The notes under the pieces were generated by a model that saw only the letters and a list, made by a program, of their open reading frames with translations, did no database searches and was not told where the DNA came from. Made by a program: the position numbers and the translations under genes. From Escherichia phage EC.P1, in the sequence record PQ657772.1: a stretch of 64,000 bases of DNA. One strand, 5' to 3'. Below, piece after piece: positions 56,251 to 62,100 of this stretch (positions are counted from its first letter, which is position 1; each line of letters starts with the position of its first letter).

Positions 56251-56338
56251 GGATACACCTATGCACCCTGTGGGCTAGTTTTTGTCTATGCGTATATAAT
56301 AGCAAAGGGACTGACCGGAGTCAATCCCTTTTTTTATT
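56251..56338 (-). repeat. conserved intergenic element copy 1 with terminator-like hairpin (56304..56331)
   Basis: About 85 bp shared with 59007..59096 and 62019..62100; 12-bp stem with one G-U pair on minus transcript, UCCG loop. Confidence 0.6.
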
Positions 56339-56346
56339 CTTTTTTG

Positions 56347-56547
56347 TTAGATGATTCTCCAATCATCAACGATCATGGTAAGATACCGAACCAGTGATTC
56401 GAGTGATTCGTGTTCTCGATAGTCTGCCGCTCCACCAGCGGTACAAGTACAGCCGATTAAGCCGTTTTGTAGTTCCTGGATCTTTACGTCGATCTGGTTG
56501 GCTTTAGCTTCTTTCAGTACTTCAACCAGGGCGATAGCGATAGACAT
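56347..56547 (-). CDS. hypothetical protein
   Basis: Track ORF 66 aa; GGAG RBS. Confidence 0.55.
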   Translation of the reverse strand: MSIAIALVEVLKEAKANQIDVKIQELQNGLIGCTCTAGGAADYREHESLESLVRYLTMIVDDWRII

Positions 56548-56568
56548 AATGTTTTACTCCAAACTATT

Positions 56569-56630
56569 GGCGGGAGAACTATTCCCCCGCTCTATGTAAA
56601 ACATTATACATTACTGGTTAGTACTGTCAA
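56569..56630 (-). promoter_or_regulatory. promoter (TTGACA-16-TATAAT) plus 5'-UTR hairpin
   Basis: Hairpin GCGGGGGAA-UAG-UUCUCCCGC with G-U pair on minus transcript. Confidence 0.6.
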
Positions 56631-56637
56631 ATAGTTT

Positions 56638-56895
56638 TTATGAAATATCTTCGATGTAGTCGGCCCATTTCATTTTTTCAGTACTGTCAATGGCTACCGG
56701 ATTATTTGGATCAAACCATTCACCATCACCGCAATACATACCCACGGCTACGGTTTTATAGCCATCCTGGGCCGTACACCACGACATTGCACGATAGATA
56801 TGGCCTTTAACTGGTTGCAGTACTGGTAACGTTTTATGGTCTTCTACGTAGGCCATAGCTTGAGGATTTACCCGATATTGTGTGAACTGATCCAT
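56638..56895 (-). CDS. hypothetical protein
   Basis: Track ORF 85 aa. Confidence 0.55.
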   Translation of the reverse strand: MDQFTQYRVNPQAMAYVEDHKTLPVLQPVKGHIYRAMSWCTAQDGYKTVAVGMYCGDGEWFDPNNPVAIDSTEKMKWADYIEDIS

Positions 56896-56923
56896 TATGT
56901 TTCCCCTTGTAGTTAGTAAAGTT

Positions 56924-56952
56924 ATTACATCAGTACTATCAAGCTATGTCAA
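56924..56952 (-). promoter_or_regulatory. promoter (TTGACA-17-TGTAAT), no hairpin
   Basis: Minus-strand read upstream of 56638..56895. Confidence 0.45.
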
Positions 56953-56971
56953 TAGTACTGAAATAAAACTT

Positions 56972-57196
56972 TTAGATTAGATTATTGAGGCCGTCAATGG
57001 TAGACTCACTTTCTTCTTTCTCCCATTGTCGGTAGTACTTCCATGCTTCATGATAGGTGGCGATTAGTTCATCTTTTTGATCCTGGTTACATGCCAGTAC
57101 TGAATCACGGTGAGCGGTGTTATAGATAGAATCGAATGATTTCTTCTCTTCTGCCAGGTTAGCTACTTCCCGCATCAGTTCATCAAAGTTAGCCAT
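56972..57196 (-). CDS. hypothetical protein
   Basis: Track ORF 74 aa; AGGAG RBS. Confidence 0.6.
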   Translation of the reverse strand: MANFDELMREVANLAEEKKSFDSIYNTAHRDSVLACNQDQKDELIATYHEAWKYYRQWEKEESESTIDGLNNLI

Positions 57197-57214
57197 TTTA
57201 TTACTCCTTTTAGT

Positions 57215-57272
57215 GGGGGAGGATATCTCCCCCTATGCAAAACATTATACTTTGTTTTAGTTATTATGCAAG
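57215..57272 (-). promoter_or_regulatory. promoter (TTGCAT-17-TATAAT) plus 5'-UTR hairpin GGGGGAG-loop-CTCCCCC
   Basis: Minus-strand read upstream of 56972..57196. Confidence 0.6.
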
Positions 57273-57527
57273 TACTTTTTTCATATAAACATTAAATTCT
57301 ACACCGCCGTAACCTTCCACGATGATATGTTTTGCGTTATCACGTTTGCACATAGTGAAACCATCGTTTACGTGTTTTGCATTTTCCAGGGCGACATCAC
57401 CGATAGCGGCACATACGGCACTAATAACAGTATTCCGCAAAGTACTGGTATCATTGGCGGTCATAGTAGTTTGCAGTACTACGTTGTCGTATACGTGTGC
57501 ATTGATAGTGATTTCGATAGTGTTCAT
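57264..57527 (-). CDS. hypothetical protein
   Basis: Start trimmed to MNTIEITINAH (track N-terminus MFYIERGKWF is the translated 5'-UTR hairpin). Confidence 0.55.
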   Translation of the reverse strand: MNTIEITINAHVYDNVVLQTTMTANDTSTLRNTVISAVCAAIGDVALENAKHVNDGFTMCKRDNAKHIIVEGYGGVEFNVYMKKVLA

Positions 57528-57546
57528 GGTGTATCTCCTGGACTTG

Positions 57547-57607
57547 AGGGGAAACCATTTCCCCCTCTCGATATAAAACATTATACGTTAATCTAACTAC
57601 AATGCAA
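57547..57607 (-). promoter_or_regulatory. promoter (TTGCAT-16-TATAAT) plus 5'-UTR hairpin; AGGAG RBS
   Basis: Minus-strand read upstream of 57264..57527. Confidence 0.6.
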
Positions 57608-57614
57608 GTACTTT

Positions 57615-57806
57615 TTAAATTTTATTTCCGATATAGTCCGGCATGTTCTTTTCAGTCATACGCTTTGCTAATGTCTGCATATGGCTTATAGCGTTCAAGG
57701 TGTCTTCCTCCAGGGATGAATCAAGATAATCAGGATCATTCTTCACCTTGCAATGATTATGATATCGTAGTACTGCCAGTACTTTTTTAACTTCTTCTAC
57801 TGTCAT
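57615..57806 (-). CDS. hypothetical protein
   Basis: Track ORF 63 aa; ATGA-coupled to 57803..58075. Confidence 0.55.
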   Translation of the reverse strand: MTVEEVKKVLAVLRYHNHCKVKNDPDYLDSSLEEDTLNAISHMQTLAKRMTEKNMPDYIGNKI

Positions 57807-58075
57807 AATAAGTACCCCACTTCGTTAGCTTTCAGGTTAGTATCAATCATCAGTGGATTTTTGTAGTTCACAAAACGAGTAGTTTTCTCGATAGCGAAAC
57901 CCATATAATCCAGCTTACTAACAGTACATTCATTCTTAAAAACTTCTTTCGCTGCATCGATGGCTGATTGCATGGATAACCGACCATCTAAATTAATGTT
58001 TCCAAATGATCCACCAGCAGAAGTAGGATTACCGTTCATATCTTTAATGATCATAGTAGCGGAGTAGCTGGACAT
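57803..58075 (-). CDS. hypothetical protein
   Basis: Track ORF 90 aa. Confidence 0.6.
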   Translation of the reverse strand: MSSYSATMIIKDMNGNPTSAGGSFGNINLDGRLSMQSAIDAAKEVFKNECTVSKLDYMGFAIEKTTRFVNYKNPLMIDTNLKANEVGYLL

Positions 58076-60727: not shown

Positions 60728-60775
60728 GGTGTACATCCTATTAGTTAAGTTAATTAGTACTACAAGTTAGAGTCT

Positions 60776-60804
60776 ATTATAAAGTACTATCTGGGCAATG
60801 TCAA
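60776..60804 (-). promoter_or_regulatory. promoter (perfect TTGACA-17-TATAAT), no hairpin
   Basis: Minus-strand read upstream of 60332..60727. Confidence 0.6.
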
Positions 60805-60826
60805 ATAGTACTTTAAATGGATTCTA

Positions 60827-61150
60827 TTACATGTCTTTCTTACGTTTTACATCGTAGTAGCGAACTGTAATTTCTTTGTTGATCTCTTTCTCAATTCTGT
60901 GTAGTACTTTCTCTTTCGGGTTGAAACCTATTACAGTTTCCTTAATGATTTCTAAACCCGTGTACTCACCTTGTGTGCCGTAACCGTATGTAAAGGTTTC
61001 GTGTCCCAGGTCTTCCCAGCGATCACCAATCAATGCGGACACGTAGCAGGAGTGGTAAGTATTGCCGTGGCTATCAGTCCACCGATTAACTTTAATGTCA
61101 AAGGAGGTTACAATTTTCAGTTCTACTTTCTGGGTAAGGATCATAGCCAT
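60827..61150 (-). CDS. hypothetical protein
   Basis: Track ORF 107 aa. Confidence 0.6.
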   Translation of the reverse strand: MAMILTQKVELKIVTSFDIKVNRWTDSHGNTYHSCYVSALIGDRWEDLGHETFTYGYGTQGEYTGLEIIKETVIGFNPKEKVLHRIEKEINKEITVRYYDVKRKKDM

Positions 61151-61173
61151 TTTTATTTCTCTCTCTTTGTTAG

Positions 61174-61234
61174 GAGGGGAACCATTCCCCTCGCTTGATG
61201 TAAACTATTATACAGTACTAAGATACTTTGTCAA
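61174..61234 (-). promoter_or_regulatory. promoter (TTGACA-16-TATAAT) plus 5'-UTR hairpin GAGGGGAA-loop-TTCCCCTC
   Basis: About 95 bp near-identical to 61421..61510. Confidence 0.65.
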
Positions 61235-61237
61235 TAC

Positions 61238-61420
61238 TTATTTTTTGGAAAGTTTACGCATTAATTCTACGCTTTCTTGTGAACGTTTTGCTACTTGACA
61301 AGCTGCATGGGCAGTAAACATTTTTGTATAGTCTGACGCTTTGCCACCGAACCGAGCGGCACGTTCACGGGCACTTGGAACTAATACGATTTCTTTCTTA
61401 CAGATAGTGCACTTAGCCAT
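61238..61420 (-). CDS. small Cys/His-containing protein (60 aa)
   Basis: Start trimmed to MAKCTICKKEIVL...HAAC (track start 61465 translates the hairpin). Confidence 0.5.
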   Translation of the reverse strand: MAKCTICKKEIVLVPSARERAARFGGKASDYTKMFTAHAACQVAKRSQESVELMRKLSKK

Positions 61421-61443
61421 TTTAATTTCTCTCTCTTTGTTAG

Positions 61444-61505
61444 GAGGGGAACCGTTTCCCCTCACTTGATGTAAACTATTATACAGTACTAAGATACTTT
61501 GTCAA
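61444..61505 (-). promoter_or_regulatory. promoter (TTGACA-16-TATAAT) plus 5'-UTR hairpin
   Basis: Duplicate of the 61174..61234 cassette with a compensated stem change. Confidence 0.65.
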
Positions 61506-61508
61506 TAC

Positions 61509-61784
61509 TTAAGTATTGTAAATGTCGTGAATAGTGATAAAGTTTTTACGACCGTAAACATGTAAATCAGTATCAATGTAGTGCTTATCAAGTACATCCT
61601 CGACGCTTAAAGACGTGTCGTGAATATCTTCATAAAATTGTGGATCAACAATCGTGCTTAAGTCATCTGGCGTTAACTTATCGTTAAGGCATTGAACCGC
61701 CTGGATATCTGCTTCACGTTTCCATTGTTCCAGATTAGTAGTCAGTACTTGCTCGATTTCGTTAGCTGTAAGTAAAGTCCGCAT
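61509..61784 (-). CDS. hypothetical protein
   Basis: Track ORF 91 aa; AGGAA RBS. Confidence 0.6.
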   Translation of the reverse strand: MRTLLTANEIEQVLTTNLEQWKREADIQAVQCLNDKLTPDDLSTIVDPQFYEDIHDTSLSVEDVLDKHYIDTDLHVYGRKNFITIHDIYNT

Positions 61785-61817
61785 TTTAATGTTTCCTTAT
61801 CAGTGGTTGATGTAAGT

Positions 61818-61845
61818 ATTATACTCGTTTACTTTCTATTGTCAA
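61818..61845 (-). promoter_or_regulatory. promoter (TTGACA-16-TATAAT), no hairpin
   Basis: Minus-strand read upstream of 61509..61784. Confidence 0.55.
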
Positions 61846-61878
61846 ACTATTTTATCAGGGGAGTTTTTCGTATGTCTT

Positions 61879-61961
61879 ACTCCTGGACTACTTAACGGGG
61901 TTACTTATTTCGTTCCCCGTCCTGATGTAAAACATTATACGCTTATCGTGATACTTTGCAA
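61879..61961 (-). promoter_or_regulatory. orphan promoter (TTGCAA-16-TATAAT) + hairpin + AGGAG with no ORF behind it
   Basis: Complete cassette but no ATG/GTG/TTG start follows the RBS before the next promoter. Confidence 0.45.
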
Positions 61962-62018
61962 GTACTTTTTTAAAAATAGTTTTCAGTACTTGATAGTACT
62001 AGCCACCAGCAAACAATA

Positions 62019-62100
62019 GATACATTTATGCACCCGGTGGGCTAATTTGTTTCTATGCGTATATAATAGCAAAGGGACTGACCGGAGTCAATCCCTTTTT
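62019..62100 (-). repeat. conserved intergenic element copy 3 with terminator-like hairpin (62071..62098)
   Basis: Third copy of the element; directly after stop of 62110..62259. Confidence 0.6.

Follow-up and report, generated by a model that had tools for sequence, protein, structure and literature searches.

Positions 56251 to 62100 of a 64,000-nucleotide stretch of Escherichia phage EC.P1 (record PQ657772.1; the whole stretch is referred to as the window) contain three copies of a conserved intergenic element, which raises the question of what such an element does between the small genes that surround it. A reading made from the sequence alone had described an 85-bp element that follows the stop of a gene and ends in a long stem-loop, and had suggested a terminator, possibly bidirectional, a 3' stability or processing element, or a recombination substrate. 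The feature itself is real, and the comparison with related phages indicates that it was partly misread: the emphasis lay on the other strand, and a promoter and a leader were missed. With high probability, the element is composed of a hairpin behind the stop codon, a sigma-70 promoter overlapping this hairpin, and a conserved, structured leader, here called module B. The best overall explanation, which we consider probable, is that of a punctuation cassette in which the RNA domain itself would be the product.

A repeat finder placed the copies at 56252-56344, 59012-59104 and 62019-62111 (67-90% identity over 93 nt), in agreement with the sequence-only reading, and a 41-nt core, TATATAATAGCAAAGGGACTGACCGGAGTCAATCCCTTTTT, is identical at 56293-56333, 59053-59093 and 62060-62100, with no match in 100 dinucleotide shuffles (0 expected by chance). 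Copies 2 and 3, as well as a fourth copy beyond the window end, belong to a repeat unit of about 195-200 bp (58912-59105 and 61911-62112) that takes in the next promoter; these ~200-bp repeats lie ~3 kb apart. Every plausible gene between 55 and 64 kb is on the minus strand, and each copy indeed follows a gene stop, 11-15 nt past the minus-strand open reading frames (ORFs) 56347-56547, 59103-59744 and 62110-62259. Read on this gene-sense strand, the stem-loop comes first, and the description of an element that "ends" in it has to be reversed. The same applies to a further shared segment, AATAGTTTT(C)AGT, which had been assigned to the high-coordinate side: it is located on the low side, at 58975-58987 and 61975-61987, with a variant AATAGTTTTAGT at ~56198-56209 in copy 1, and is part of the AT-rich approach to the next promoter.

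The hairpin of copy 1, AAAGGGAUUGAC-UCCG-GUCAGUCCCUUU, occupies 56304..56331 on the minus strand, 15 nt after the stop of ORF 56347-56547 (-19.9 kcal/mol, z score -6.5). The identical sequence recurs on the same strand at 59064..59091, 11 nt after the stop of ORF 59103-59744, the homologue of which is annotated as a Ser/Thr kinase in phage fEgEco12, and at 62071..62098, 11 nt after the stop of ORF 62110-62259. As had been noticed, on the minus transcript the stem has 12 bp, one of them a U·G pair; it is capped by a C(UCCG)G tetraloop of the UNCG type, closed by a C-G pair. Fold energies on the minus strand range from -19.5 to -19.9 kcal/mol (z score -5.3 to -6.5), compared with -13.3 to -13.4 kcal/mol on the plus strand, where the stem carries an A·C mismatch. 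In the fourth copy, as present in phage WPEC3, the stem is kept by two compensatory changes, and mismatches are accommodated as G·U on the gene-sense strand only. A consensus scan called a terminator-like minus-strand site at all three copies, the minus strand of copy 1 reading AAAAAAAGGGATTGACTCCGGTCAGTCCCTTTGCTATTATATACGCATAG; stem and loop fit the form of an intrinsic terminator (G+C-rich stem, short loop), and the tail, UUUGCUAUUAU, passes a simple scan (five T in eight) and holds only three consecutive U, with U4-U6 in relatives. Since a stable, terminator-like hairpin lies directly past the stops, the proposed role as a terminator or 3' stabiliser is plausible for this part of the element, while the rest of it is a sigma-70 promoter and a transcribed leader. 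We infer from the hairpin form and from reporter data on the promoter-early stem-loops (PeSLs) of T4-like phages (PMC2839356) that the hairpin terminates and/or 3'-stabilises the upstream message. Bidirectional action is possible because the same stem is followed by T5-T7 on the plus strand; the plus fold is weaker, however, and the consensus scan called no plus-strand promoter facing the three copies.

The stronger U-run that had been reported for the plus strand exists, as T7, T6 and T5, but its identity is that of an A-tract upstream of a minus-strand -35 box. The consensus scan called a minus-strand promoter at all three copies. In copy 1 it spans 56296..56324, with the -35 box TTGACT at 56324-56319, a 17-bp spacer and a TG-extended -10 box TATTAT at 56301-56296 (10 of 12 consensus matches, TG present); the A-tract lies at 56332-56345, and the predicted start is the A of a CAT at 56289. 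The promoters of copies 2 and 3, TTGACT-17-TGcTATTAT, span 59056..59084 and 62063..62091 on the minus strand, with predicted starts at 59049 and 62056. At all three copies A5-A7 precedes the promoter and matches the proximal UP subsite. The -35 box and the hairpin share their bases: TTGACT consists of the last five bases of the 5' arm and the first base of the loop.

This overlap recurs in relatives. Among 296 unique TTGAC promoters collected from the window and nine related loci (10 sources), 42 have a stem of at least 9 bp with a 5' arm ending in TTGAC, and the stems of all others have at most 5 bp. Within the 42 hairpin-promoters the -35, the 17-bp spacer and the TG-extended -10 are always kept although the stems vary by compensatory change (GGGA/UCCC, GUGG/CCAU, GUAC/GUAC, GGAG/CUCC); the loops are mostly UNCG (UUCG, UCCG or UACG), with UCCG in the window and UUCG in most relatives. 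Judged by this comparison, hairpin-promoters are a discrete class and no accident. About half of them stand directly before a Shine-Dalgarno sequence and start codon (SD-ATG), as at position 3042 of related locus L006, 4116 of L005 and 38185 of L002, and the other half carry the module B leader.

Module B is a family-wide RNA motif of 45-50 nt, and the sequence GCACCC(T/G)(G/A)TGGG singled out by the earlier reading represents its minus-strand core. The consensus consists of CAU(A/U)G, a hairpin P1, and YUR(A/G)CCCA(C/U)AGGGUGC(A/G)(U/G)A(A/G)N-U-N-Y-R-Y-C-Y. A motif search in the related loci gave 93 unique instances, 81 of them with TTGACA-like and TATAAT-like boxes upstream; in these 81, about three of which would be chance motif matches, the -10 box ends 20-29 nt before the CCC motif, apart from two mis-assigned cases at 41 and 48 nt. 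The other 12 mostly have a weaker -35 such as TTGCAT, and include a few chance matches. Because promoter boxes lie upstream and the conserved CAT follows the -10 by 5-7 nt, module B is predicted to form the 5' end of a transcript. It occurs at the same distance behind ordinary promoters and behind hairpin-promoters, and hairpin-promoter and module B are therefore separable. A leader of the class AGCA-AGAACAA-UGCU, a P1 class found in six phages, is identical in RaK2, Munch, Hallingskeid and an uncultivated phage, and the promoter spacers of these copies differ.

A covariance model, R1, was built from 38 leaders; across 13 sources it recovers 84 copies, of which 80 are distinct. Applied to the window with filters off, R1 identified the three copies only (E values from 1e-12 to 2e-7; next match E 1.8): the short-P1 form CAUAGACAAAAACUAGCCCACAGGGUGCAUAGGUGUAUCCAAAAU of copy 1 at 56246..56290 (minus strand; 38.5 bits, E 1.6e-7), the full form CAUUGAGAGAUAACUCACUGACCCAUAGGGUGCGGAAGUGUAUCUAUUAU of copy 2 at 59001..59050 (minus strand; 57.7 bits, E 1.2e-12), with P1 GAG-AGAUAA-CUC, and the short-P1 form of copy 3 at 62013..62057 (minus strand; 38.4 bits, E 1.6e-7). 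P1 covaries at all three modelled pairs, with CG, GC, AU and UA present at each (for example CG 21, GC 21, GU 4, UA 3 and AU 1). Changes on both sides were counted in 83 P1 cells compared with 37 in shuffles, none of 500 shuffles being as high, and sliding the P1 partner lowers pairing from 86% to 24-64%. A per-sequence search yielded more than 25 distinct P1 stems around purine-rich loops (AGAUAA, AGAACAA, GAGAAA, GCGAAA), at a fixed distance of 4-5 nt from the CCC; the short form of window copies 1 and 3 has a UAG/CUA stem 1 nt from the CCC. P1 starts 2-6 nt from the predicted 5' end. The second helix, P2 (RCCC-AYA-GGGU), is almost invariant, shows two independent CCU/AGG compensations and tolerates loops of 3-4 nt, and in the third, P3 (GGGUGC...GYRYCY), five of six positions are 90-100% paired. 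Most P3 pairs are G·U, so that this helix can form only in the sense RNA. Module B is a lineage-specific RNA domain, predicted to open dozens of transcription units in relatives. A pseudoknot between the P1 loop AGAUA and a downstream UAUCU was considered and rejected, as it fits one P1 class only.

To determine how widely the element is distributed, as the earlier reading had proposed, relatives were searched by BLAST with the 111-bp element. The search identified 67 phage records at 74-100% identity, including the jumbo phages RaK2, K64-1, GAP32 and CBB and those of Erwinia, Yersinia, Salmonella and Serratia, with four places per genome, a number that doubles to eight in records containing the terminal repeat twice. 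The flanking genes, by contrast, gave no nucleotide-level detection in these genera. An exact-motif scan of IMG/VR matched only contigs of 346-378 kb, and the exact motif had seven scattered matches in 185,579 bacterial and archaeal genomes, in unrelated taxa and at chance level, with none in Enterobacterales. A gathering-score scan of the whole window with Rfam 15 gave no match, Rfam searches of 55900-62400 at E values up to 10 gave two chance-level matches, neither on module B, and scanning for transfer RNA (tRNA) and transfer-messenger RNA (tmRNA) found none. A search of the literature by phage names and motif string returned no description of the element, and the module B RNA domain appears to be undescribed.

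Within the genome stretches examined, the copies are confined to a particular region. Jumbo coliphages of the 121Q/PBECO4 group (Asteriusvirus) align with the 6.4-kb stretch at 90-96% identity, and Salmonella phage SD-2_S15 gives the best match (94%). In a local BLAST comparison the WPEC3 record begins, with its base 1, at window position 54847, and in phage vB_Ec-M-J the homologous region falls within a direct terminal repeat annotated at 1-21525, with ~1.4 kb left to the inner end of that repeat. The window thus spans a terminal-repeat boundary, at which the assembly joins the unique region to the repeat, and 54847-64000 corresponds, by this alignment, to the promoter-distal 9.15 kb of a terminal repeat of 21.5 kb in which small early genes are densely arranged. 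The repeat, present twice per genome, is the carrier of early genes. All twelve copies in CBB fall within its annotated 22.5-kb terminal repeat, those in GAP32 and RaK2 are clustered in ~20 kb, and WPEC3 has at least 11 copies in its 21.5 kb; each repeat contains 11-14 copies of module B. R1 found no module B in the 54.8 kb of the window outside the repeat, and in the stretches examined all copies are within the direct terminal repeat or its gene cluster.

What lies downstream of module B depends on its orientation. No terminator-like hairpin occurs within 136 nt of any of the 39 gene-sense copies, which lead into a gene, at some copies (as in the window) by way of another promoter; some stand directly before SD-ATG, 36 nt after the CCC in L018 (12617) and L005 (6443). 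In the window, 60-190 nt of spacer and a further promoter separate each leader from the next gene. After copy 1 an ordinary promoter at 56154..56182 (minus strand) serves gene 55768-56100, the leader reading in with no terminator between; after copy 2 the promoter at 58934..58961 (minus strand), which belongs to the ~200-bp repeat common to copies 2, 3 and 4, serves gene 58657-58877; and after copy 3 a promoter at 61934..61961 (minus strand) is followed by a structured non-coding stretch, a second promoter at 61818-61845 and gene 61509-61784. The stretch between these two promoters, 61850-61935 on the minus strand, is apparently structured (CAGGACGGGGAACGAAAUAAGUAACCCCGU...CAGGAGUAAGACAUACGAAAAACUCCCCUG); a 30-aa plus-strand ORF annotated over its homologue in WPEC3 looks spurious.

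A terminator-like, G+C-rich hairpin is associated with seven of the 20 antisense copies, starting 47-52 nt after the CCC in six of them and 64 nt in the seventh, and this hairpin is one that the converging upstream gene shares. The resulting antisense unit, from promoter to terminator, comprises ~95 nt with an AU-rich spacer, and the layout of a small RNA (sRNA) is seen at antisense copies in the related loci L002 (24743), L005 (9823 and 18516) and L001 (16830). Here a promoter would be kept only to make a 95-nt antisense RNA, which suggests that the RNA domain itself is seen by selection. The antisense copies without such a hairpin are mostly opposed to a gene-sense copy, and in these convergent pairs the two CCC motifs lie 68-86 nt apart; as both members carry module B, transcripts reading through the pair would include a 15-bp G+C-rich inverted repeat. 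Convergent consensus promoters ~140-150 bp apart, each followed by module B, were observed at 19140-19420 and 21080-21480 of L001, 27330-27580 of L003 and 14270-14540 of L005, and several convergent pairs are within 1-2.5 kb of the physical genome end.

In the proposed punctuation cassette, the hairpin would end and/or 3'-stabilise the message of the upstream early gene, and the overlapping sigma-70 promoter would start a new transcript at the A of CAT, 7 nt past the -10, a position fixed by comparison. This transcript would open with the 45-50-nt module B leader, the window leaders running on into the next promoter and gene, and the RNA domain itself would be the selected product, an abundant immediate-early non-coding RNA module. 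Two further proposals go beyond this and are put forward tentatively, as falling short of likely. One is that the leader works in trans rather than via the downstream gene: made abundantly as an immediate-early RNA, it would bind a factor of host or phage and serve as a decoy or regulator. The other, held with the same reserve, is that module B represents a new, trans-acting family of immediate-early phage RNAs, combining a constant domain, RCCC-AYA-GGGUGC...GYRYCY, with a variable, class-conserved 5' hairpin. Such an RNA would be fired from a dozen consensus promoters per terminal repeat upon DNA entry, and its target would be a factor that Enterobacterales hosts have in common, such as a defence system, a nuclease or an RNA-binding protein.

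Several observations weigh against an RNA domain as product. None of the three window leaders ends at a terminator; formally, the domain here is no more than the 5' portion of a long leader, an arrangement that a cis role explains just as well. Antisense matching in the window, duplex energies over 54-64 kb and a scan of bacterial genomes brought up no binding partner or target: the window holds no reverse-complement match to the leader with up to two mismatches, and duplex energies of leaders with the sense transcripts of 54-64 kb are no better than those of shuffled leaders. P2 and the extended P3 compete for the same GGGU, so that either could form, and most variation in P2 and P3 consists of one-sided transitions, which are weaker evidence than compensatory change; the alignment, moreover, was fitted to the model, and copies within one genome are related. 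The hairpin tail has three consecutive U before GC, and termination may be partial. Finally, the literature searched contained no transcript data for these phages, and transcript starts, 3' ends and abundance are all predictions.

The window leaders lead directly to the competing view that module B is a cis-acting leader, either for antitermination, like HK022 put or lambda nut, or for protection or processing of the mRNA 5' end. Lambda nut consists of boxA (CGCUCUUA-like) and a boxB hairpin with a GNRA-like pentaloop, and module B resembles nut and put in being a short structured RNA soon after an early promoter. It is always promoter-proximal, P1 begins within a few nucleotides of the predicted 5' end and resembles boxB in that the stem varies around a purine-rich loop that is conserved, hairpins abound in the early region, and all 39 sense copies read into genes without meeting a terminator, some standing immediately before a start codon. 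Nevertheless we regard a cis function as unlikely. The antisense copies meet a terminator after ~50 nt and no gene, the convergent pairs give an antiterminator or mRNA stabiliser nothing to act on, and each gene downstream of the window copies has a second promoter, which comes with a 5' GC hairpin of its own. In contrast to nut and put, module B starts at +1 and is present in many copies, including antisense and convergent ones before terminators; no boxA-like sequence was detected in the 80 distinct leaders, the P1 loops have 6-8 nt and are not GNRA-like pentaloops, and no sequence similarity to nut or put is evident. An element acting solely as an intrinsic terminator, perhaps in both directions, or as a 3'-end stabiliser would make the promoter hexamers and the conservation of the flank incidental. 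It would explain the position of the hairpins past the stops and their terminator-like form on the minus strand, the T5-T7 behind the plus-strand version, and the annotations at this site in the records of UE-S1 and G17 ("terminator") and GAP32 ("stem_loop"). We nonetheless judge it quite improbable, as the promoter boxes and their spacing persist in all 42 hairpin-promoters while the stems vary, the conserved 45-50 nt also occur at the same distance behind hairpin-less promoters, no plus-strand promoter faces the copies, and the plus stem, with its A·C mismatch, is 6 kcal/mol weaker.

A role at the level of DNA, as a cassette for recombination or gene conversion that shuffles early genes (the role proposed for PeSLs) or as a protein-binding operator past the start, is consistent with the three identical 41-nt cores in ~200-bp repeats and with the Chi sequences that adjoin two copies, and PeSL-mediated exchange is documented in T4-like phages (PMC2839356, PMC4122927). 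Three relatives, WPEC3, fEgEco12 and 121Q, were compared in detail for exchange and for insertions or deletions (indels). The copy at locus 3 of 121Q is a mosaic of window copies 1 and 3, pointing to exchange between copies, and to this extent the suggestion of a recombination substrate stands. Copies did not bound gene-content differences in the comparisons with WPEC3 and fEgEco12: the indels, at 60043/59958 and 62790/62814, are at ordinary promoter cassettes. An apparent gene-content boundary at the edge of copy 3, where many megablast alignments end (query 6113), proved to be an artefact of piece-joining, local BLAST being collinear through all copies. The helices, furthermore, are kept by G·U pairs and compensatory changes that are meaningful only in sense-strand RNA, the 3-4-nt variation of the P2 loop would hardly be tolerable in a duplex-DNA binding site, and recombination may be a side effect of repetition rather than a selected function, making a DNA-level role rather improbable in our view. 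Very improbable is an R-loop in which promoter and G-rich leader prime replication, as at T4 oriF and oriG, with convergent pairs giving two diverging forks. A strong promoter followed by a G-rich RNA segment (GGGUGCGGAGG) and AT-rich DNA, and convergent pairs near the terminal end of the repeat, would suit this idea, but covariation of the hairpin and strict sequence conservation are unexpected for an unwinding element, a repeat contains 11-14 copies, and several of these are directly before terminators or SD-ATG.

Among known systems, the PeSL cassettes that T4-like phages carry (Arbiol et al. 2010, PMC2839356; Comeau et al. 2014, PMC4122927) come nearest to the hairpin-promoter by this comparison; in reporter assays their stem-loops terminate and their promoters are active (PMC2839356). 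In both cases a composite cassette occupies the intergenic space next to small early ORFs and combines a strong sigma-70-like promoter and an AT-rich upstream tract with a stable, terminator-type stem-loop within the promoter, and in both cases it is repeated every 1-4 kb with signs of exchange between copies. In the window the stem-loop, a predicted terminator, overlaps the -35 and the spacer, whereas the PeSL stem mostly lies between -35 and -10 or over the -10. PeSLs end in the SD and start codon of the next gene, while the three copies have no SD-ATG at the 3' end and drive a non-coding leader, then a second promoter; hairpin-promoters of relatives that lack module B do share this PeSL ending. 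PeSLs are found in hyperplastic regions of T4-like phages; here the host genome is that of a Rak2-like or Asteriusvirus-like jumbo phage and not of the Tevenvirinae type, the cassettes are in a fixed 21.5-kb direct terminal repeat, and no indel bounded by the three copies was found relative to WPEC3 and fEgEco12. For these reasons (no SD-ATG end, another phage group, a fixed terminal repeat, and no copy bounding the indels examined) the element is referred to as PeSL-like and not as a member of the PeSLs.

Comparisons for the other parts are less close. The layout of promoter, AU-rich spacer, terminator and U-tail in the relatives' antisense copies is shared with bacterial sRNAs, whereas the window copies differ from an Hfq-type sRNA gene in having a promoter but no terminator within 136 nt. 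Hairpins with C(UUCG)G or other UNCG tetraloops reportedly occur in T4 intercistronic regions, a finding ascribed to Tuerk et al. in 1988; the hairpins described here are likewise exceptionally stable, have a C-G closed UNCG loop and lie between phage genes, and differ in that loop and 5' arm double as the promoter -35 hexamer. In the distant Pseudomonas jumbo relative PA5oct, two abundant and unexplained non-coding RNAs of 236 and 451 nt originate from the terminal repeat (Lood et al. 2020, PMC7318152), and they share with module B the character of non-coding transcripts from the early-gene terminal repeat of a related jumbo phage. Module B, in contrast, is present in many copies, in which the 3' part is constant and the 5' hairpin varies, and these PA5oct RNAs, which are supported by RNA sequencing, were rejected as carriers of module B (none detected, best E 0.9). 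Resemblances to the lambda boxB stem (AGCCC..GGGCA), to CRISPR repeats of types I-E and I-F and to ToxI were judged by eye to be superficial or unconserved. A GGA motif as bound by CsrA is present in only about half of the P3 loops, an SD-like GGAGGUG is not conserved, and a resemblance to a stretch of tmRNA had no support in Rfam.

Further features of the surrounding DNA were observed. Ordinary early-gene cassettes occur every ~300-600 bp on the minus strand of window 55700-63500 (for example at 58625-58652, 61207-61234 and 61478-61505) and consist of an A-tract, a perfect TTGACA-16/17-TATAAT promoter, a G+C-rich hairpin in the 5' untranslated region (GGGGAGAACTATTCTCCCC and variants), SD and ATG. 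The sole other strong terminator in the stretch is a bidirectional-looking classical one, GGCGGGATCAGTTCCCGCC, at 60291-60309, followed by T6 on the minus strand after gene 60332-60736. Tiny "hypothetical proteins" of 30-39 aa are annotated over leader, spacer or promoter DNA at window 56111-56230 (minus strand) and its homologues; these annotations, for example CDS004, CDS013 and CDS023 of WPEC3, are probably not genes. Outside the terminal repeat, window 21999-54651 contains many diverged direct-repeat families (D1-D14) that resemble tandem paralogous small genes.

Two short words are over-represented in the whole window. No hexamer is more over-represented than the palindrome AGTACT (217 occurrences compared with 40 expected under a second-order model; GTAC, 587 compared with 195), which is found throughout coding as well as non-coding DNA and is common in promoter spacers (CAGTACTGnnTAAT). 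Chi (GCTGGTGG) occurs nine times (0.39 expected), eight of them on the minus strand: seven are within the first 9 kb of the terminal repeat (56209-63859, minus strand), and the others are at 4771 (minus strand) and 14368 (plus strand). The site at 56209..56216 (minus strand) is 30 nt downstream of the copy 1 leader, and a second one, at 62003-62010, follows the copy 3 leader by 3 nt. In this orientation the sites would halt RecBCD that enters at the end of the repeat (54847); nine Chi with the same orientation are present at 1.4-15 kb in WPEC3, and in relatives Chi is present even inside the spacers of module B promoters (TTGACAAGCTGGTGGAGTACTGGCATAAT).

Jumbo phages of the 121Q/RaK2 group are used in phage-therapy work, and their early programme consists almost entirely of "hypothetical" genes. 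With the cassettes described here, the early region would gain a readable grammar of terminator-in-promoter cassettes and ordinary promoter cassettes, and the former may serve as ready-made compact terminator-promoter parts. Of all nucleotide sequences in the terminal repeat, module B may be the one best conserved across at least six host genera, and it would be a non-coding RNA and not a protein. If it acts in cis, it would constitute a new promoter-proximal control element; if it acts in trans, it would be a new RNA for host takeover or anti-defence.

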